NCBI GenBank assembly: GCA_017503865.1
Contig: JAFVSI010000015.1
Location: 7,175 to 71,174, forward strand
Reading direction: 5' to 3'
Length of the DNA: 64,000 nt
DNA from: Clostridia bacterium
GTDB taxonomy: Bacteria > Bacillota > Clostridia > Oscillospirales > CAG-272
Of the stretch, positions 5,477-28,465 are shown in pieces; position 1 is the first letter of the stretch; each line of letters starts with the position of its first letter. The notes beneath the pieces are model-generated. The model was not told where the DNA came from and made no database searches. It saw only the letters and a program-made list of their open reading frames with translations. Position numbers and translations under genes: made by a program.

Positions 5477-6405
5477 TGTCGAATAATCTTAAACTTTCAG
5501 TTTCTCCTCATATCCATAGCGGAAACTCAACCTCTACTATTATGCTTGACGTAATAGTCGCTTTGATACCTGCAACGGTTGCAGGATGTATTATATTCGG
5601 ACTTCGCTCTTGCTTAGTTCTTGCCGCTTGTATCGTAAGCTGTGTTTTATTTGAGTTTCTTTATAATTTGATACTTAAAAAGGAACAAACGATTGGTGAC
5701 TTCAGTGCTGTGGTTACAGGCTTATTGCTCGGTCTTAACCTTCCGGCAAATATTCCGATTTGGCAGTGTATCATCGGTTCGTTTATTGCAATTATTATAG
5801 TAAAGTGCCTTTTTGGCGGAATTGGATGTAACATTGTAAATCCTGCTATTACTGCAAGAGTGTTTATGCTCGTTTCCTTTGGAACGATGACTACCGCTGC
5901 TATGCCGACCGTTGTCGACACAGTTGCAGGTGCTACCCCACTTTCTGCCGAAACAATCGAGCAGTCTATTGGTGAGCTCTTTCTTGGACTTAAAGGTGGT
6001 GCTATCGGTGAGACTTGTATATTAGCTTTAGTAGTCGGTCTTGTGTACTTACTTGTGCGTAAGGTGATTAGTTGGCATATACCTCTTACTTTTATAGGTA
6101 CTGTTTACATTTGCTCCTTCTTTATGGAAGGACTTGATCCTATAAAGGCACTCGCTATGATTCTCTCGGGCGGTCTTTTCATCGGTGCAATTTTTATGGC
6201 AACCGACTACGTAACATCTCCTTCAACAGCTTGGGGCAAAGTAGTATTCGGTGTCGGTGCCGGTTTGCTTACCTTCCTCATTAGATACTTCGGTGACTAT
6301 CCCGAAGGCGTTTCCTTTGCTATTCTCTTTTTCAATATTCTTACACCTTATATTGAAAAATGGACTAAGCACAAAGTATTACTTGCAGGGGGTAAAAAAG
6401 CATGA
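5476..6405 (+). CDS. rnfD: Rnf complex subunit D
   Basis: 309 aa polytopic NqrB/RnfD family protein. Flavinylation-type motif DTVAGATPL and conserved FMATDYVTSP. TAATG overlap with rnfC. Confidence 0.95.
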   Translation: MSNNLKLSVSPHIHSGNSTSTIMLDVIVALIPATVAGCIIFGLRSCLVLAACIVSCVLFEFLYNLILKKEQTIGDFSAVVTGLLLGLNLPANIPIWQCIIGSFIAIIIVKCLFGGIGCNIVNPAITARVFMLVSFGTMTTAAMPTVVDTVAGATPLSAETIEQSIGELFLGLKGGAIGETCILALVVGLVYLLVRKVISWHIPLTFIGTVYICSFFMEGLDPIKALAMILSGGLFIGAIFMATDYVTSPSTAWGKVVFGVGAGLLTFLIRYFGDYPEGVSFAILFFNILTPYIEKWTKHKVLLAGGKKA

Positions 6406-19325: not shown

Positions 19326-20765
19326 TTAGAACTGTTTAATAAGCCTTATGTAAAATTCAACCGCACGGCAAAGCGTTTCAAGTCGGATTTTCTCATTATT
19401 ACCGTGAATGCTTGCTCTCTCTTCACTCGTGAGATCCATAGCCGAAAAACGGTAAACCTTGTCGGAAATTTTGCCGTAATGACGGCTATCTGAGCACTGA
19501 ACCATAAGGTATGGCGAGACAATCGTTCCTTTCCAAGTGTCAGCAATTGCTTTTGCAACTCTCTCATAACCTTCACAATCGGTTCTTGAAATACGGCTTG
19601 GCTCGTTACCGTGAATCTTAGTTACGCTAACCCTGTCGTTGTCTATAGTTTTTCTAATGTACTCGACAGCACCGTCAATCGAGTCAGCAGGATTAAGACG
19701 AATATTTGAAACCATAGTAGCGGTAGGAGGAATAACGTTTGAAGCATCGCTACCCTTCATTTGTGTAAAGGCAACTGTCGTTCTCATAAGAGCGTTCATT
19801 TCACCACCGCTCTTCTTGGCAATCATATCAAGCACAGGTCTAAAGCACCAAAGATTTGCAAAAATCATTCTATAAACAAAGGTTGAATGTCGGCCGAGAG
19901 TATCGAACATTTGACGAACAGGCTCGGTTATATGACACTTAAAAGGATTTGCTTCAACCTTGCAACAAGCAGCGGAAAGCTCGCCGACAGGAGTATGAGC
20001 TTTAGGAGCAGATGCGTGACCGCCGTTTGACTGTACCTCATATTTCAAATCAAGAAGTCCCTTCTCAGCAATACCGACCATAGCACAAGGAGCTTTGACA
20101 CCCGGAAAAACGTTTTCAACAACGGCACCGCCCTCGTCAACAACCGCACGAAGCACGATTCCTTGCTTTTCAAAATAATCAACTATATGACAAGCACCAA
20201 GTCCGTTTACCTCTTCTCCGCCCGAAAAAGCAAAATAAATGTCATTTTCCGGTACAAAGCCTTCCGCAATAAGATGATTTGAGGCAGAGAGAATTCCGTT
20301 GACTGTTACCTTAGTGTCAAGCGTTCCTCTTCCCCACATAACACCGTCCTCTATTATTGCTTCAAAGGGGGGCTTTGACCACTTTTCTTCAACAACGGGA
20401 ACTACGTCGTAATGTGCCATAAGCACAAGCGGTTCTCCTACAGTTTTTCCCGGCCATCTAAATAAAAGTCCTCTGTCATCAAGCGTTTTTAGCTCACACG
20501 TAGCAAAAACATTCGGGTATAGAGTTGGAAGAAGATTTATAAGCTTTTCAAATTCAGCATCGTCCTCGTCATCACGAGAATATCTCGACACGGTTTTACA
20601 CTTTACAAGCGAAGCCAGTGCCGAAATAGCGGCGTCCTTATCAAAGTTAATTTCCTCGCATTCACTCTCATCTTGCTTTTTTGGAACAAAAAGTGCGGTA
20701 CGTATTAAAACAACAGCTAAAAAAGCTAAGATTAGTGCAGAAAGAATAATTACAAAATACAACAT
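19326..20765 (-). CDS. Membrane-anchored M20 family metallopeptidase
   Basis: 479 aa. N-terminal TM helix followed by R/KK. M20 metal-ligand blocks MAHYDVVP and FSGGEEVNG. Confidence 0.88.
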   Translation of the reverse strand: MLYFVIILSALILAFLAVVLIRTALFVPKKQDESECEEINFDKDAAISALASLVKCKTVSRYSRDDEDDAEFEKLINLLPTLYPNVFATCELKTLDDRGLLFRWPGKTVGEPLVLMAHYDVVPVVEEKWSKPPFEAIIEDGVMWGRGTLDTKVTVNGILSASNHLIAEGFVPENDIYFAFSGGEEVNGLGACHIVDYFEKQGIVLRAVVDEGGAVVENVFPGVKAPCAMVGIAEKGLLDLKYEVQSNGGHASAPKAHTPVGELSAACCKVEANPFKCHITEPVRQMFDTLGRHSTFVYRMIFANLWCFRPVLDMIAKKSGGEMNALMRTTVAFTQMKGSDASNVIPPTATMVSNIRLNPADSIDGAVEYIRKTIDNDRVSVTKIHGNEPSRISRTDCEGYERVAKAIADTWKGTIVSPYLMVQCSDSRHYGKISDKVYRFSAMDLTSEERASIHGNNEKIRLETLCRAVEFYIRLIKQF

Positions 20766-21442
20766 TAAAGAATCCCCTTCTTATACAAGATTCGAGCATA
20801 CGCAAGAGTAAATACAACACCAACGGGAACCATGATTCCTACCGTACCCGCATTAAGAGCAGGGACAAAAATAAATGCGATAAGCATAAGAATAACAGGG
20901 CCGATAGCAAGTTTTACGTTTTTTGATACGAATACGACTCCAAGTGCTCCAAAAAGTGCGGGAAGCATTTGGTCGAAGGCAGGCTTTAACGTTGCAGAAG
21001 ATAAAATAGGCTCAAGAGGGGCTATAAGCAAAACTCCAATTATTATGATAAAGGTAGTTACAATAGAGGAAACGGCTATCGAAATAGTAGATATAAGCTC
21101 GCCCTCTTCGCTTTGAGCTTTAACGTTTGCGTTTTCAAGAGCCCCGAGTGCACAAGGAAGCTTTAAATTAGAAATATTGCCTGTTACAAAGGATAGATAA
21201 GAGCCACCTGCACCAAGCATGGGTATGTAAGTGATAGTCTCAATTATACCGACCGCCCAATACATAGGAGCGGTAGCAAGAAGTCCCTTGCCAACTCCTG
21301 CCCAGTCGGGTATTGCCGAAAAGATAACACCGACAACAACAGGAAACGCCATAAGAAGGACCATCATAGAGAGATTCCAGATGCGACCGTCACGGTGGAC
21401 ACTGTCCATATAAGTAAATTCTTTTCTATTCATTTTCTTCAT
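20765..21442 (-). CDS. Uncharacterised polytopic membrane protein (about 6 TM)
   Basis: 225 aa, hydrophobic. Stop overlaps the M20 start (TAATG). Start overlaps the upstream membrane gene's stop (ATGA). Confidence 0.7.
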   Translation of the reverse strand: MKKMNRKEFTYMDSVHRDGRIWNLSMMVLLMAFPVVVGVIFSAIPDWAGVGKGLLATAPMYWAVGIIETITYIPMLGAGGSYLSFVTGNISNLKLPCALGALENANVKAQSEEGELISTISIAVSSIVTTFIIIIGVLLIAPLEPILSSATLKPAFDQMLPALFGALGVVFVSKNVKLAIGPVILMLIAFIFVPALNAGTVGIMVPVGVVFTLAYARILYKKGIL

Positions 21443-22233
21443 GCTATCACACCTCCAAGCAAAGCAGTTACGGGAATTGCAGATGCCATACCAAGAACCA
21501 AGCTTATCGGCAATGCGTAGTCGTTAAGCCATTTCCATTTGAGCTTTTTCATTAAGAGACCGCACATAGCCATCACAAGTGCCGAAACTACCATTACAAC
21601 AACAGGAACAAGTCCCGAGGTGCTCGTAAACATTTCACCCTTAGAGTTTGTATATACACCGTTTTCAGATAACCACAAGCGAGAAATATCGCAGAAAACA
21701 AATCCTACAAAAGCAGAGATCATACCGATAAAAAGAGCGTTTTGCATAATATCACTCCACTTTTTGTCTTTTTTCTCAAAGCTAACAAGACCGTTCTGAA
21801 TCTTTTTTCCAAGCACAGGAACGAGCCATATACCGACGAGTATAGAAAGTGTCATAACTATTGAAATTGTTAGATACTGAGAGGCATTCATATCACCAGC
21901 AAGCTCTGAAAGATTAAATCCCATACCCGAAGCCGCATTTTGTGCAGCTATTGCCTCATAAGAAAGAGAACCTATAACTGAAAGTCTCAGCCAAGGAAGT
22001 GGAAGACCAAGCGATTGCGAAAGCGATAAAATAGCAATAACAATTGAAACTGCAGGGGCAACTGTAAACACAGCAGATGTCAAGATAGTCTTTTTTACAG
22101 TTTGATTCGACATTCCTATTTTCTTTGCTTGACGCATTGCTTTAAACAAAAAATAAAACGATTGGGCTAACACCGCCACAATTATGATGCCGACAAGCAC
22201 GAAGAGAACAGGATGATTTACACTAAATTCCAT
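21439..22233 (-). CDS. Uncharacterised polytopic membrane protein (possibly DUF5058-like)
   Basis: 264 aa, about 6-7 TM. First gene of a three-gene translationally coupled unit. The family name is from memory only. Confidence 0.65.
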   Translation of the reverse strand: MEFSVNHPVLFVLVGIIIVAVLAQSFYFLFKAMRQAKKIGMSNQTVKKTILTSAVFTVAPAVSIVIAILSLSQSLGLPLPWLRLSVIGSLSYEAIAAQNAASGMGFNLSELAGDMNASQYLTISIVMTLSILVGIWLVPVLGKKIQNGLVSFEKKDKKWSDIMQNALFIGMISAFVGFVFCDISRLWLSENGVYTNSKGEMFTSTSGLVPVVVMVVSALVMAMCGLLMKKLKWKWLNDYALPISLVLGMASAIPVTALLGGVIA

Positions 22234-23456: not shown

Positions 23457-23488
23457 AAAAAAAGGCGTCGCATTGCGACGCCTTTTTA
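23457..23488. terminator. Terminator after the PII-like gene
   Basis: ggcgtcgc / gcgacgcc stem with att loop, flanked by an A run and a T run. Confidence 0.75.
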
Positions 23489-23493
23489 AAAAA

Positions 23494-24204
23494 TCATTCT
23501 TCGTTTTCTTCGGTTTGTGCTGCCTTGTTTAGACCGACAACACAGTCAACAGGCAAAGAAAATATTATTCCCCTTCCTTGCGTGTTAATGCCCGAAGCCT
23601 CGGCAATAGCATTCATTACCTTGTTTTTATCCTCACGCTTTACAACGTTGAGTATGATTTCCTTTTCGGGCTGAATTGCAATACCGAGGAATTTCTGTGC
23701 TTCCTCAGCACCCATTCCGAGTGCGTGAATAAGTGTACCGCCTCTTGCACCTGCAGAAATAGCAGCAGTTTTTACGTCTTGAAAATATCCTCTTGTTATT
23801 ATTGTTATAACCAGCTCATACTGATGTTCGCTTGACATATAAAAATCCTTCTCCTTAGTTATTTTAGGTTGAGTCTCGTCATCTTTTTTGACAATTCCCG
23901 ACAAAAAAGATGTGGCACTTGTAAGAGGAACGGTAAACATTATTCCCTTACCGGGCTTTGAAATGTTTATTTTCTCTTCTGCGAGGTCAAAAATATAATT
24001 GGCACGTTCAGAGGAAATAATCGAGATCATTATGCTTTTTTTATTCTCACCAAAGCCAAGATATTCAAACATTGACGAGTCAGCGCATCCAAATCCGTGA
24101 GTCGATACACTGATCGGAGCTTTTGCAGAATTAAATACGTGAGCCAACTCTTCGCTCTTGCTGTAATCAACAATTGAAAACAACGCACAAATTCTATTAC
24201 TCAT
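23494..24204 (-). CDS. Tandem PII-like (GlnB-fold) protein, two fused units
   Basis: 236 aa. The second unit aligns by eye to GlnB (VITIITRGYFQDVKTAAISAGARGGTLIHALGMG...KEIILNVV...GRGIIFSLPVD). The first unit is more divergent. ATGA overlap with the DUF1538 gene. Confidence 0.7.
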   Translation of the reverse strand: MSNRICALFSIVDYSKSEELAHVFNSAKAPISVSTHGFGCADSSMFEYLGFGENKKSIMISIISSERANYIFDLAEEKINISKPGKGIMFTVPLTSATSFLSGIVKKDDETQPKITKEKDFYMSSEHQYELVITIITRGYFQDVKTAAISAGARGGTLIHALGMGAEEAQKFLGIAIQPEKEIILNVVKREDKNKVMNAIAEASGINTQGRGIIFSLPVDCVVGLNKAAQTEENEE

Positions 24205-25784
24205 ATCTCACTCTCCTCTTCATAAATATCAAATTCAACGATTTCATCAGAAAGCGTTGCAATAGAAACAACTGGCTCGACAGCACGTCTCGCAATAGCG
24301 GTTTTTATCTTTGCAACAAGGCCAAGCAACTGGATAGTTACAAGGGGCGTCATAGCAACGAACGCGACAAGACCGTACGCGTCAGTCAAAGGATTACCGT
24401 TAACAGCACTGCAAGCACCGAGTGCGAGCGGTAAAAGGAAGGTCGCCGTCATAGGGCCGGATGCAACTCCACCCGAGTCAAAGGCAATGGCGGTAAATAT
24501 AGGCGGAACTAAAAAGGTCATTACTAATGAGAACAAATATCCCGGAATAAGAATATACCATATAGACATTCCAGTAATAACACGAAGGAGTGCAAGTGCC
24601 ACCGACAGTGCAACTCCAATTGAAAGTGCAAAGCCTACAGACTTTCCTTTTACAGCACCTTCCGTAACGTCTTCAACCTGATGTTTTAAAACGTGAACAG
24701 CTGGCTCAGCAGAAACGATGAACCAACCAATAACAGCTCCGATGGGTAAAAGCAACCAAGGCATATTACTTTCGCCAATAGCTTCTCCGATAAAGCTGCC
24801 CATAGGCATAAATCCAACGTTAACACCCGTCAGGAACAAAACGAGTCCTATGTACGTATAAATGAGTCCAACGAGAATTTGTATTACGTTGACCTTACCA
24901 AGCTTGAGTGAAAATATCTGAAAAATAATAAAGAAAATAAGAATAGGAAGAAGTGCTACGGCGACCTCGACCATATGATCGGGCAATTCCTTTACGTATT
25001 GATAAAACACGGCGGAAATAGAGGTAAGTGCCTCAGCCGATTCTCTTCCTATCTCAACACCCGACACACCGTTTAGCGCACCGAGAATAAGCACTGTAAT
25101 AATAGGTCCTATCGAGCAGAGTGCGACGAGACCAAAGCTGTCTTCTGCTGAATTCTTATCACCTCTAACAGAAGCAAGTCCGACACCGAGTGCCATTATA
25201 AAAGGAACGGTAATGGGTCCTGTTGTTACTCCGCCCGAATCAAATGCAACAGCAACAAAATTGTTTGGAATTAGAGGTGACATAGCCAAAACAAATATAA
25301 GACCGTACATTACGAGTAATATATATGAAAGCTTGACCTGAAGATAAACTCTGAAGAAAGAGACCACCAAGAAAATTCCAACGCCAACAGCTACTGAAAT
25401 TATCATAACCGAAGGGTCGACGACTTTTTCAAGTGAGTCAGCAAGAACACGAAGATCAGGTTCTGCAATCGTTGCTATAACACCAAGAATAAAACAAACG
25501 ACAGTCACAAGAAGAATACTTCTTGACTTAGTGATATGTGAGCCTATTGATTGACCTATTTTCATCATCGATACATCCGCACCAAGTGTAAAAAAGGTCA
25601 TACCAATTATCAAAAGAATTGTAGCAATTATAAAAGATATTATTGAAAAGAATGACGCTTTTGCAACTGTTAGCGACAAGACTAAAACAATTGCCGCGAC
25701 GGGAAAAACTGCAAAAAACGCTTCTTTGAATTTTTCGAATAAATGTTTAATCAATTTTATATACCTCAAGCCTAAACGCAACAT
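24201..25784 (-). CDS. Tandem DUF1538 membrane protein (internal duplication)
   Basis: 527 aa polytopic. Repeated signature AFDSGGVTTGPITVPFIMALGVG / AFDSGGVASGPMTATFLLPLALG. Alternative TTG start at 25754 has a GAGG RBS. Confidence 0.8.
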   Translation of the reverse strand: MLRLGLRYIKLIKHLFEKFKEAFFAVFPVAAIVLVLSLTVAKASFFSIISFIIATILLIIGMTFFTLGADVSMMKIGQSIGSHITKSRSILLVTVVCFILGVIATIAEPDLRVLADSLEKVVDPSVMIISVAVGVGIFLVVSFFRVYLQVKLSYILLVMYGLIFVLAMSPLIPNNFVAVAFDSGGVTTGPITVPFIMALGVGLASVRGDKNSAEDSFGLVALCSIGPIITVLILGALNGVSGVEIGRESAEALTSISAVFYQYVKELPDHMVEVAVALLPILIFFIIFQIFSLKLGKVNVIQILVGLIYTYIGLVLFLTGVNVGFMPMGSFIGEAIGESNMPWLLLPIGAVIGWFIVSAEPAVHVLKHQVEDVTEGAVKGKSVGFALSIGVALSVALALLRVITGMSIWYILIPGYLFSLVMTFLVPPIFTAIAFDSGGVASGPMTATFLLPLALGACSAVNGNPLTDAYGLVAFVAMTPLVTIQLLGLVAKIKTAIARRAVEPVVSIATLSDEIVEFDIYEEESEI

Positions 25785-25925
25785 TCAATATATCATGCTT
25801 ATTATAACACAGTAGAAAACCAATTTCAACTAATAATTGTAATTCTTTTAAATTTGTATTGATTTTTTGCAAATTGTGTGATATAGTATTTAATACTACA
25901 TATAATATTCCGAGGGGGGAATCAA

Positions 25926-26600
25926 ATGACGAGACAAAAATTATCTGAAAGAACTCTTCCAAAGTACACTAAGGGTGAAGAGATATTTAATATGGTTTCA
26001 CATATAGTCGGAGGCGGACTTGGAGTTGTCGCTTTGACATTATGCGTAATATTTGCAGCAATAAACAAAAATGTTTACGGTGTTGTTGGGAGTGCAATAT
26101 ACGGTGCATCTCTTATAATTCTTTATACGATGTCAAGTATCTATCACGGATTGTCGCCGAGACTGATGTCTAAAAAGGTCTTTCAGGTACTCGACCACTG
26201 CTCGATATTCTTTTTAATTGCAGGAACCTACACCCCTATTTCTCTGTCCCCACTTCGTCAGTACAATCCTCTTCTCGGTTGGACAATTTTCTCTGTTGTT
26301 TGGGCGACGGCAATAGTTGGCATAGTTCTTAATTCAATTGACATAAAAAAATACAAGAAGCTTTCGGCAATATGTTATCTTCTGATGGGTTGGTGCATAA
26401 TTTTTGCTTGGAAACCAACTGTTGCCGCCCTTGATAGAAATGCAATCGTTTTGCTTTTGGCGGGAGGAGTATCGTATACAGTAGGTGCTATGATTTATTA
26501 CTTTTTCAAGAAAAAACCTTACTCTCACTCAATATTTCACTTGTTTGTTGTCATGGGCAGCATTTTTCATTTTTTTACTATACTTTTATATTGTCTTTAA
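25926..26600 (+). CDS. Hemolysin III / PAQR family membrane protein
   Basis: 224 aa, 7 TM. Motifs SSIYHGL, LDHCSIFFLIAGTYTP, HSIFHLFVVMGS. GAGGGGGGA RBS. Confidence 0.9.
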   Translation: MTRQKLSERTLPKYTKGEEIFNMVSHIVGGGLGVVALTLCVIFAAINKNVYGVVGSAIYGASLIILYTMSSIYHGLSPRLMSKKVFQVLDHCSIFFLIAGTYTPISLSPLRQYNPLLGWTIFSVVWATAIVGIVLNSIDIKKYKKLSAICYLLMGWCIIFAWKPTVAALDRNAIVLLLAGGVSYTVGAMIYYFFKKKPYSHSIFHLFVVMGSIFHFFTILLYCL

Positions 26601-26752: not shown

Positions 26753-28465
26753 ATGAAACGCAAAACTTTATTGAGCATATGCGTTATCGCTGTGCTCGCC
26801 GCTCTTTTTGTGACGTTGTCACTCGTGGTTGACAACGGTGCAGTCGGCAAATTCGTAGACCCCGACGGATTCATTATGTCACAGGAAGACGTAGCACAGT
26901 ACGTTCTTGAAGGTGGAGATCCCGCAGAGCTTTCAACTGTAGATTCCCCATACTATGCAACTTACCTTGCTCTTCTCCCCCCTGTTATAGCAATCGTACT
27001 TGCTCTTATAACAAAAGAGGTTTATTCTTCTTTGTTTGTTGGAATTCTTTCCGGAGCACTTCTTGCAACCAACTTTAATCCCGTTGGTACACTTACTACT
27101 ATTGTAAGCGACGGTTTTATTTCTTCGGTTGCTGATTCTTGGAATGCAGGAATTCTTATGTTCCTCGTTCTTCTTGGAATGATGGTTGCTCTCATAAACA
27201 AGGCTGGTGGCTCGTATGCTTTTGGAAACTGGGCAAAAACTCACGTAAAAACACGCATGGGTGCTCAGTTTGCAACACTTTTACTGGGTTGTCTTATATT
27301 CGTTGACGACTACTTCAACTGTCTCACAGTTGGTAGTATTATGAAGCCTGTAAGTGACAGCAAAAACGTATCCCGTGCAAAGCTCGCATATCTTATCGAT
27401 GCTACTGCTGCTCCCATTTGTATGATAGCTCCTATCTCATCTTGGGCAGCTGCTGTTGCGGGTGTTGTAGTTTCTGTTAACGGTCTTGCTCTATTTATAA
27501 AGGCTATTCCTTACAATTTCTACTCACTTCTCACACTCGTAATGATCATTACTATCACCGTTCTCGGATTTGATTACGGTCCTATGAAGCGTCACGAACT
27601 CAACGCTAAAAACGGCGACCTCTTCTCCGAGGGTGAACGCAACGAGGGTGACGGAACAGTTGTTGACAGCAACGCTAAGGGCGGAGTTATCGACCTCGTT
27701 CTTCCCATTGTTGTTCTTATAGTTTCTTGTATTCTCGGTATGATCTATACCGGTGGATTCTTTGACGGCGAATCCTTTATTGATGCTTTCAGTAACTGCG
27801 ATGCTTCTGCTGGTCTTGCTCTTGGCTCAGCCGTTGCAGTTGTATTGAGCGTTATATATCTTATTTGCCGTAAGGTTATCTCCTTCAAGGATGCTATGAA
27901 TGCACTTCCTAAGGGCTTCTGTGCAATGGTTCCAGCAATTCTTATTCTTTGCTTTGCTTGGACACTTAACGGTATCACAGGCTCACTTGGTGCTGACATT
28001 TACGTTTACGACCTTATGTTCGGTGCCGCTGAGGGACTTAAGATGCTCCTTCCCGCAGTTATCTTCCTTGTTGCAGTTGGTCTTTCCTTCGCAACCGGAA
28101 CTTCGTGGGGTACTTTTGGAATTCTCATTCCTATCGTTACAGCAATCTTCCCGCCCGTTGACGGTGTTATGTCCGAGCTTCTCGTTATCGGCATTTCCGC
28201 TTGTCTCGCAGGTGCAGTTTGCGGTGACCACTGCTCGCCTATTTCCGACACAACAATTATGGCGTCCGCAGGTGCTCAGTGTAACCACGTAAACCACGTT
28301 GCAACTCAGCTTCCTTATGCAGTTACTGTTGCTGCAGTTTCCTTCGTATGCTTCATCATCGCAGGATTCATTCAAAACTGGCTCATCGTTCTTCCCATCG
28401 GTATCGTTCTTATGGTTGGAACAATTTTGGGTATAAAGTTTATAACCGAGGCTAAAAGCAAATAA
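26753..28465 (+). CDS. NhaC-family Na+/H+ antiporter-like transporter
   Basis: 570 aa polytopic. Overall resemblance to NhaC family proteins (for example IFVDDYFNCLTVGS, GDHCSPISDTTIMAS). Confidence 0.85.
   Translation: MKRKTLLSICVIAVLAALFVTLSLVVDNGAVGKFVDPDGFIMSQEDVAQYVLEGGDPAELSTVDSPYYATYLALLPPVIAIVLALITKEVYSSLFVGILSGALLATNFNPVGTLTTIVSDGFISSVADSWNAGILMFLVLLGMMVALINKAGGSYAFGNWAKTHVKTRMGAQFATLLLGCLIFVDDYFNCLTVGSIMKPVSDSKNVSRAKLAYLIDATAAPICMIAPISSWAAAVAGVVVSVNGLALFIKAIPYNFYSLLTLVMIITITVLGFDYGPMKRHELNAKNGDLFSEGERNEGDGTVVDSNAKGGVIDLVLPIVVLIVSCILGMIYTGGFFDGESFIDAFSNCDASAGLALGSAVAVVLSVIYLICRKVISFKDAMNALPKGFCAMVPAILILCFAWTLNGITGSLGADIYVYDLMFGAAEGLKMLLPAVIFLVAVGLSFATGTSWGTFGILIPIVTAIFPPVDGVMSELLVIGISACLAGAVCGDHCSPISDTTIMASAGAQCNHVNHVATQLPYAVTVAAVSFVCFIIAGFIQNWLIVLPIGIVLMVGTILGIKFITEAKSK

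Follow-up and report, generated by a model that had tools for sequence, protein, structure and literature searches.

A duplicated DUF1538 membrane protein and its tandem PII-like neighbour: a conserved gene pair that may encode a PII-gated secondary transporter

In the genome of a Clostridia bacterium (Oscillospirales; GenBank assembly GCA_017503865.1) a gene for a membrane protein with two DUF1538 domains is followed, with a four-nucleotide overlap, by a gene for a soluble protein composed of two PII-like domains. Both were found in a stretch of 64,000 nucleotides of contig JAFVSI010000015.1 (positions 7,175 to 71,174), referred to here as the window, in which all coordinates are given unless a locus in another genome is named. 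A sequence-only reading of the window had named the two open reading frames and had proposed that they encode a carrier and its PII-type sensor. The reading frames are present as described, and the proposed logic has been strengthened by the comparative data: the two kinds of gene adjoin each other in several phyla, mostly overlap or lie within 20 nt of each other and have repeatedly been fused. The only economical reading of cross-phylum adjacency, tight coupling and such Rosetta-stone fusions appears to be that DUF1538 proteins and PII-like proteins are physical and functional partners. The locus is an ordinary member of a very common, unstudied gene pair; full-text searches (DUF1538, PF07556, UmpAB, and PII-like combined with antiporter or transporter) found no literature linking DUF1538 to PII. 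The two genes are:

24201..25784, minus strand: fused 2xDUF1538 (UmpAB-family) membrane transporter gene; maximal open reading frame 527 aa, likely product 517 aa
23494..24204, minus strand: tandem PII-like protein gene, 236 aa

Conservation of the pairing

Relatives of the tandem PII protein are numerous (401 in a word-indexed search; 492 clusters at 50% identity with E <= 1e-30 in an exhaustive search), and the fused transporter is represented by more than 8000 clusters at 90% identity. Scanning species-representative genomes for the tandem PII protein yielded 80 loci, nearly all from Clostridia, which were annotated with purpose-built hidden Markov models (HMMs), one for each half of each protein. 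In about 77 of the 80 genomes DUF1538 directly adjoins PII or the contig ends beside the PII gene, and at about 70 of the loci the gene directly before the tandem PII gene is a fused 2xDUF1538 gene. Junctions are tight in 61 of the 71 loci where they could be scored, the genes overlapping in 45 and being separated by 0–20 nt in 16. A third conserved partner gene was not found across the 80 loci. DUF1015, a GlcNAc-2-epimerase-like gene and SecA were considered as partners and rejected, being present at 18 of the 80 loci at most, as expected of lineage synteny.

The sequence-only reading had noted that both partners are duplicated and fused in parallel, had called for a survey of split and fused forms, and had taken the parallel to imply a fixed pseudo-dimer stoichiometry. 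The survey shows that the fusions mostly co-occur (the roughly 70 loci with fused transporter and tandem PII) but are not strictly parallel, and a fixed stoichiometry is only one possibility because mixed architectures exist. For example, four loci (L063, L065, L075, and L076) combine a fused transporter with two separate PII genes, the N-type preceding the C-type, and one (L067) combines a split transporter with a tandem PII. Split transporters with one single PII are found at L080, L085–L087, L089, and L090; the single PII of L080, from a member of the Dehalococcoidia, is C-type, and in general the single PII of split systems has its counterpart in the C-half of the tandem protein. In two metagenome-assembled genomes of Clostridiaceae (L078, 5980-8510; L079, 5977-8519) the order is reversed, with the tandem PII gene first, and the 2xDUF1538 protein, some 620 aa long, ends in an additional, third PII-like domain. 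With three PII domains in each, these systems hint that a trimer-like assembly may form on one transporter.

Beyond the Clostridia, relatives were sought with a split subunit as query and by inspection of the gene neighbourhoods of the matches. Triads of DUF1538, DUF1538, and P-II (PII of 109–122 aa) were found in Syntrophorhabdaceae, Steroidobacteraceae, Methylocystis rosea, Chelativorans, and a metagenome, and fused transporters paired with tandem PII also in Paraclostridium bifermentans and in Vescimonas fastidiosa, a cultured member of the Oscillospiraceae. L088 encodes a direct fusion of DUF1538 with P-II (Pfam P-II, E = 3.8e-5), so that, with L078 and L079, a PII domain is fused onto the transporter at three loci. 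In 8 of 8 independent checks, covering Proteobacteria, Chloroflexi, and Firmicutes, PII was found beside DUF1538 or fused to it. At L085 (1239-2499) and L087 (5778-8696), split systems from outside the Firmicutes, genes for Usp, a small Ion_trans_2 K+-channel-like protein and a P-type cation ATPase adjoin the pair. These neighbours fit an ion-homeostasis context; the sample is too small for an association.

The transporter and its PII-like partner

Within the two proteins the following parts are distinguished:

25050..25754, minus strand: DUF1538 half 1, A-type, N-terminus predicted cytoplasmic; AEPD and AFDSGGVTTGP motifs
24204..25019, minus strand: DUF1538 half 2, B-type, predicted inverted, with opposite K/R bias; AEPA and AFDSGGVASGP motifs, LSDEIxEFD tail
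23869..24204, minus strand: PII-like N-half, residues 1-112; degenerate copy
23497..23832, minus strand: PII-like C-half, residues 125-236; AGARGGT...GIAIQPEKE...QGRGIIF

The membrane protein had been recognised from its letters as an internally duplicated DUF1538 protein with the motifs AFDSGGVTTGPITVPFIMALGVG and AFDSGGVASGPMTATFLLPLALG. Both motifs occur in its translation, and the assignment is borne out by Pfam, where PF07556 (DUF1538) matches the protein twice and in full length (456 bits, cut-off 22.6; E = 1.5e-137). An alignment of the halves with each other spans 193 aa at 33% identity (E = 1e-28), and both contain AFDSGGV(T/A)(T/S)GP; according to the HMMs, the counterparts in split systems are the A-type subunit for half 1 and the B-type subunit for half 2. 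In either half, invariant carboxylates sit in two helix-breaking motifs, AEPD/AEPA and FDSGG. Such carboxylates are typical of ion-coupled carriers and may here take part in ion binding. An AlphaFold model of the 517-aa form (pLDDT 81, pTM 0.80) gave nothing credible when compared with the Protein Data Bank (PDB) by Foldseek (best E 0.02, TM <= 0.2) and so points to no mechanism class, be it elevator, rocker-switch or another; no sequence relatives of the transporter were found in the PDB. The DUF1538 transporter fold, as modelled, is experimentally unrepresented.

Seven transmembrane segments are predicted for each DUF1538 module, and the modules are joined by a linker, about 17 residues long, without an additional helix. 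The distribution of positive charges over the connecting loops is opposite in the two halves: the mean number of K+R is 9.3 in loops a, c, e, and g versus 1.7 in loops b, d, f, and h of half 1, and 1.55 versus 9.05 in the same loops of half 2. This opposite positive-inside bias was observed in 40 of 40 fused proteins, and in split systems the A-type subunits resemble half 1 (6 of 6) and the B-type subunits half 2 (6 of 6). Because of the opposite bias, the seven segments per module and the helix-free linker, the modules are probably antiparallel, forming an inverted repeat when fused and an antiparallel heterodimer when split. The cytoplasmic face of such a transporter would be asymmetric and not a two-fold-symmetric platform. 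To this predicted face, half 1 contributes its N-terminus with loops c and g, and half 2 contributes loops b and d together with the C-tail. The C-tail (24204-24310, minus strand; residues ~482-517 of the 517-aa form) is modelled as disordered (pLDDT below 50) but contains an acidic motif, LSDEIxEFD, that is conserved across the fused DUF1538 family. It is at this C-terminal end of the transporter that the PII domain is fused in L078, L079, and L088, and the PII partner may dock on the LSDEIxEFD tail.

The statement that no substrate has been established for DUF1538 proteins is not supported. UmpAB from Halomonas zhaodongensis was reported in 2017 to be a pH-dependent Na+(Li+,K+)/H+ antiporter composed, as a heterodimer, of two paralogues that are each predicted to have 7 transmembrane segments (PMC5484666), and NCBIfam contains models for UmpA and UmpB. 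With UmpAB, E. coli KNabc tolerated Na+/Li+ and alkali, and antiport was observed in everted vesicles; the paper mentions no PII, and the cloned fragment ends after umpB (PMC5484666). The protein described here shares with UmpAB the PF07556 domain and the cooperation of two homologous 7-transmembrane modules, which are however joined in one chain here and are separate subunits in UmpAB. Both of its halves align over the whole length with the models of UmpA and UmpB (NF041627/NF041628) at scores of 177/131 bits, which is below the cut-offs of 490/500 for equivalog membership, and the PII-linked split pairs examined also stay below the cut-offs with 78–140 bits. The substrate of UmpAB therefore carries over only as a family-level hint.

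The PII-like partner had been read as a tandem of two PII units, which is now supported for each half by different means. The C-half matches the Pfam P-II family PF00543 above its gathering score (42.5 bits versus 25; E = 8.6e-11; residues 131-223). The N-half has no Pfam match; that it is a diverged PII copy is supported by its alignment to the profile of the C-half (hhalign 95.8%, E = 8e-9), by an AlphaFold model in which both halves show the pattern beta-alpha-beta-beta-alpha-beta (pLDDT 66, pTM 0.66), and by the separately encoded N-type orthologue of L063, which gives a weak Pfam P-II match (E = 0.062). Domain by domain, Foldseek relates the model to GlnK, GlnB, and CutA structures with a probability of 1.00 (TM on target 0.6–0.71). 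The two-domain templates that Foldseek proposed for the whole chain, namely designed cages, BMC-T shell proteins and sulfur oxygenase reductase, were rejected as spurious double-ferredoxin matches (TM on query ~0.25, rmsd >= 14 A).

Proteins of the PII superfamily are homotrimers with ligand sites in the clefts between subunits. Both halves of the tandem protein, the single partners of split systems and the fused PII domains were aligned with E. coli GlnB, with K90, R101, and R103 cross-checked in alignments that HMMER made to 4ozj and 2o66. One coherent subfamily emerges, made up of the C-half, every single partner and the fused domains and marked by the signature AGAxGGT ... G(I/V)xI(E/Q)PEKE ... 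PGxG(I/L)xF. The comparison with GlnB drawn in the sequence-only reading holds for the fold and for the scaffold (in the C-type domain G24, G27, T29, G35, G37, G87, G89, and F92 are kept across phyla; GlnB numbering) but not for the ligand-binding residues. At R38, Q39, K58, K90, R101, and R103 the C-half carries A, E, E, I, G, and N. In the subfamily, K58 is replaced by E with K at +1, K90 by I, L or V, and R101 by G, and the canonical residues for ATP and 2-oxoglutarate (2-OG) are gone in every DUF1538-linked PII examined. Y51, the modification site, falls in the C-half into a deletion of six residues. The T-loops of the two halves indeed differ in sequence, as had been noted, but both are only six residues shorter than that of E. 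coli GlnB and are thus only moderately short; the B-loop is of the same length as in GlnB and without insertion (GRGIIF versus GDGKIF). The N-half lacks G24, G27, and T29 and has an invariant motif of its own, THGxGxADS...LGFGENKK. The best-conserved stretch of the entire tandem protein is the beta2/T-loop/beta3 segment of its C-half, where 22 positions in residues 147-181 are invariant among sequences down to 52% identity, as expected of a contact surface.

The RefSeq name of the tandem PII family is "P-II family nitrogen regulator". None of the NCBIfam models for GlnB and GlnK matches the tandem protein, and, judged by its residues, it is not a canonical nitrogen regulator, nor is its ligand to be deduced from GlnB. 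The top PDB profile match of the subfamily is chain H of 9p1x ("P-II family nitrogen regulatory protein", 105 aa; E = 1.7e-8), which may be a NifI1-like short-loop PII. It has a similarly short T-loop, but the match amounts to only 37 bits and the genomic context is another one; the subfamily itself is without a solved member. The features of the c-di-AMP receptors PstA/DarA, a very short T-loop and a long B-loop, are not those of the proteins considered here, with a T-loop only six residues shorter than in GlnB and a B-loop of equal length. Alpha- and Gammaproteobacteria are generally not known to possess diadenylate cyclases. Since the system occurs in both, c-di-AMP is unlikely to be the family-wide ligand.

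It is instructive to compare the pair with the known PII-regulated transporters. As in AmtB-GlnK, a transporter gene and a gene of the PII superfamily form one operon and a conserved T-loop is the likely contact. The transporter folds are unrelated, however, and the PII protein is here a tandem without the ATP/2-OG residues and without the Y51 uridylylation site. AmtB is a parallel homotrimer that matches the PII homotrimer, whereas DUF1538 transporters are A/B pseudo-heterodimers and probably antiparallel. With SbtA-SbtB the pair shares a non-canonical PII-like regulator dedicated to one co-transcribed secondary transporter with an internal repeat. It differs in having no homology to SbtA (PF05982), in that the nucleotide-binding residues are not conserved, in its taxonomic range, and in the absence of the C-terminal redox R-loop of SbtB: the PII protein ends with ...NKAAQTEENEE and has no Cys motif. 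Membership in the AmtB-GlnK or SbtA-SbtB systems is excluded. A conserved role as "valve plug" has been proposed for PII-type regulators of transporters (bioRxiv 10.1101/2023.08.10.552651). Membrane proteins of the YitT family, e.g., BB0017 of Borrelia, carry a C-terminal PII-like DUF2179 domain (PMC6516651). In this case, too, an uncharacterised membrane module is combined with a loop-truncated PII-like domain without known ligand residues, which parallels L078, L079, and L088; the membrane domain (DUF161) and the PII-like family are others, the comparison being based on the description in that paper (PMC6516651).

Operon signals and neighbouring genes

The transporter gene and the PII-like gene appear from their flanking signals to be a self-contained two-gene operon, delimited and organised by the following elements:

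25801..25829, minus strand: promoter-like site; -35 TTGAAA, 17-nt spacer, TG-extended -10 TATAAT; 11/12 consensus matches
25754..25770, minus strand: probable true transporter start; GAGG Shine-Dalgarno sequence, 9 nt, then TTG at 25754
24201..24204, minus strand: ATGA stop/start overlap, coupling translation of the transporter and PII-like genes; GAGGAGAG just upstream
23457..23487, minus strand: intrinsic terminator; GC-rich hairpin AAAAAGGCGUCGC-AAU-GCGACGCCUUUUU, then a U-run

The overlap, already pointed out in the sequence-only reading, is read directly as ...GAG ATA TGA / ATG AGT..., with the stop codon of the transporter running into the start codon of the PII-like gene. The terminator, a strong one, lies 7 nt past the PII stop codon and is supported by folding (dG -24.7 kcal/mol, z = -6.5); a terminator scan had not flagged the same hairpin. 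Translation of the transporter most likely starts at TTG 25754, giving a product of 517 aa, because GAGG precedes this codon by 9 nt, the homologues are about 515 aa long and other gene callers choose 517 aa on sibling contigs. The ATG at 25784, with which the maximal reading frame begins, lacks a Shine-Dalgarno sequence and, judged by the predicted transcription start, would be preceded by a mere 10 nt or so of transcript.

Between the promoter (25801-25829) and the start codon at 25754 there is space for a leader of only some 40 nt, too short to hold a riboswitch. The regulatory RNA that had been suggested upstream of the transporter was accordingly rejected, and so was any other leader RNA: Rfam returned zero RNA families for the whole window at gathering thresholds and, at permissive thresholds for 25700-25960, a chance match to a viral CRE alone (E 0.67). 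The sole transcript run that was found, X1, of unknown type, yielded fragmentary low-depth contigs of related strains, which have no bearing on co-transcription. In the divergent intergenic region a single palindrome was found, the AT-rich ATATAGTATT/AATACTACAT at 25881-25901, with 10-nt arms and a 1-nt gap. It overlaps a promoter-like site of trhA and may be an operator or a chance occurrence in AT-rich DNA.

The operon is surrounded by wecB, trhA, a gene for an NhaC-type antiporter and a DUF5058/M20 cluster; amtB, glnA or nif are not among its neighbours. The TrhA/hemolysin-III gene (25926-26600) lies between the DUF1538 pair and the NhaC-type gene. The latter (26753-28465, plus strand), 1 kb from the pair, encodes a Na_H_antiporter family protein of 570 aa with a membrane extension of about 220 aa at its N-terminus; its top NCBIfam match is Tet(35)-like, at 209 bits against a cut-off of 750. 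On the other side, a block of three genes (19326-22233, minus strand) encodes a DUF5058 protein (264 aa), a membrane protein of 225 aa without Pfam or NCBIfam match, and an M20/M28 peptidase (479 aa). Their stops and starts overlap or abut (21439-21442; 20765), and the block is kept on the sibling contigs L081–L084. It may be an uncharacterised membrane-associated peptidase system.

Function of the pair and its meaning

We favour, with moderate confidence, the view that the pair constitutes an antiparallel A/B secondary transporter, probably for monovalent cations and protons, together with a dedicated PII-like protein as its gate. In the transporter, the ancestral DUF1538 subunits A and B would have been joined in one chain, with the halves inserted in opposite orientations and with the carboxylates of the AEPD/AEPA and FDSGG motifs as the likely path of the ion or substrate. 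The PII-like subunit, whose C-type domain would be able to bind a ligand and whose N-type domain is degenerate, would dock on the asymmetric cytoplasmic face via its near-invariant beta2/T-loop/beta3 segments, and a bound small molecule would decide whether it opens or blocks transport, by the same logic as GlnK acts on AmtB and SbtB on SbtA. The single PII partners of split systems presumably form trimers; the tandem protein supplies two PII domains, and in L078 and L079 there are exactly three for each transporter. The likeliest reaction would be the exchange of a monovalent cation (Na+/K+/Li+) for H+. The hint for cation/proton exchange comes from the antiport activity of UmpAB, from a machine-learning study that lists PF07556 among the genes predictive of adaptation to growth pH, beside components of Mrp, Kdp, and Trk (PMC13255231), and from the cation-related neighbours in some systems, the latter two being weak independent support.

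It should be noted, however, that several points weigh against this view. The gene structure, the operon signals, the domain homologies, the conserved pairing, the natural fusions, the opposite K/R bias and the loss of the canonical PII ligand residues are shown, but physical binding, gating, substrate and ligand are inferred. UmpAB is active in E. coli without any PII protein (PMC5484666), and its assignment comes from the KNabc complementation and everted-vesicle assays of one laboratory (PMC5484666). The transporter and the PII-linked split pairs are, by their scores, not orthologues of UmpAB. A PII subfamily without K58, K90, R101, R103, and Q39 may perhaps not bind nucleotides at all. The tandem PII protein has been modelled with no more than moderate confidence (pLDDT 66), the T-loop of the C-half scoring below 50. 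Finally, at one locus (L071, Clostridium minihomine, 5541-6387) an N-type and a C-type PII gene lie between genes for an SBP_bac_5 solute-binding protein and a cupin, and DUF1538 is missing within 6 kb of them; it is the sole orphan among the 80 loci.

It is possible, if less likely, that a transporter with a PII-like gate is present but carries bicarbonate, ammonium, another inorganic ion or a small metabolite, the cation exchange of UmpAB being a side activity or specific for its clade. Indeed, both characterised pairs of PII protein and transporter, AmtB-GlnK and SbtA-SbtB, serve the assimilation of carbon or nitrogen (bioRxiv 10.1101/2023.08.10.552651), the clade considered here is distant from the UmpA/UmpB equivalogs, a Na+/H+ antiporter of the NhaC type is already encoded 1 kb away, and the DUF1538 fold has no solved relative from which a substrate could be read. 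But the sole experimental datum for the DUF1538 family is cation/proton antiport (PMC5484666), and conserved membrane-embedded carboxylates suit the binding of a cation or proton. The correlation with pH adaptation (PMC13255231) and the cation-related neighbours in some phyla point in the same direction, and genes of carbon or nitrogen assimilation are not linked to the pair.

We regard a constitutive role of the PII-like protein in structure or assembly as improbable, namely that of a cap or scaffold that has kept the ferredoxin-like fold and lost sensing. Such a role would agree with the finding that no DUF1538-linked PII examined retains the canonical residues that ligate ATP/2-OG, with the further degeneration of the N-half, and with the simple fusion of the PII domain to the transporter in some lineages. 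A purely structural role leaves hard to explain, however, why the scaffold that frames the inter-subunit ligand cleft (G24/G27/T29/G35/G37/G87/G89/F92) is retained across phyla, and UmpAB, although of a different clade, works without co-expressed PII (PMC5484666). That the soluble protein is an ordinary GlnB/GlnK nitrogen regulator beside DUF1538 by meaningless coincidence is effectively refuted by the comparative data: the match to PF00543 and the best PDB sequence and fold matches, GlnK/GlnB, are outweighed by the tandem of two domains, the loss of K58, K90, R101, R103, Q39, and Y51, the T-loop shortened by six residues, the zero matches to NCBIfam GlnB/GlnK models, the lack of linkage to amtB, glnA or nif, and an adjacency to DUF1538 that is conserved across phyla up to domain fusions.

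A bolder extension of the gated-transporter view, to which we would give somewhat less than an even chance, is that DUF1538-PII systems are a third, pan-phylum class of PII-gated transporters beside AmtB-GlnK and SbtA-SbtB, with an unsolved fold, antiparallel A/B modules and a PII protein that has given up the canonical ATP/2-OG site and would read a ligand new to PII signalling. If this were true, the tandem, split and fused variants would show how a sensor family of three-fold symmetry adapts to an asymmetric target of two modules.

PII proteins are among the most widespread signal transducers, and of their partnerships with transporters only those for ammonium and bicarbonate are mechanistically understood. 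The pair described here is found in gut and rumen Clostridia, in Chloroflexi and in Proteobacteria, where its genes are labelled only "DUF1538 domain-containing protein" and "P-II family nitrogen regulator". Cultured and tractable hosts that carry it are at hand in Paraclostridium bifermentans, Vescimonas fastidiosa, and Methylocystis rosea. Its study could bring to light a transporter fold not seen before and an unfamiliar way in which PII proteins recognise a target, with a tandem sensor on an asymmetric target. The ligand and the substrate, once worked out, would give a function to thousands of genes and would correct the misleading label "nitrogen regulator".

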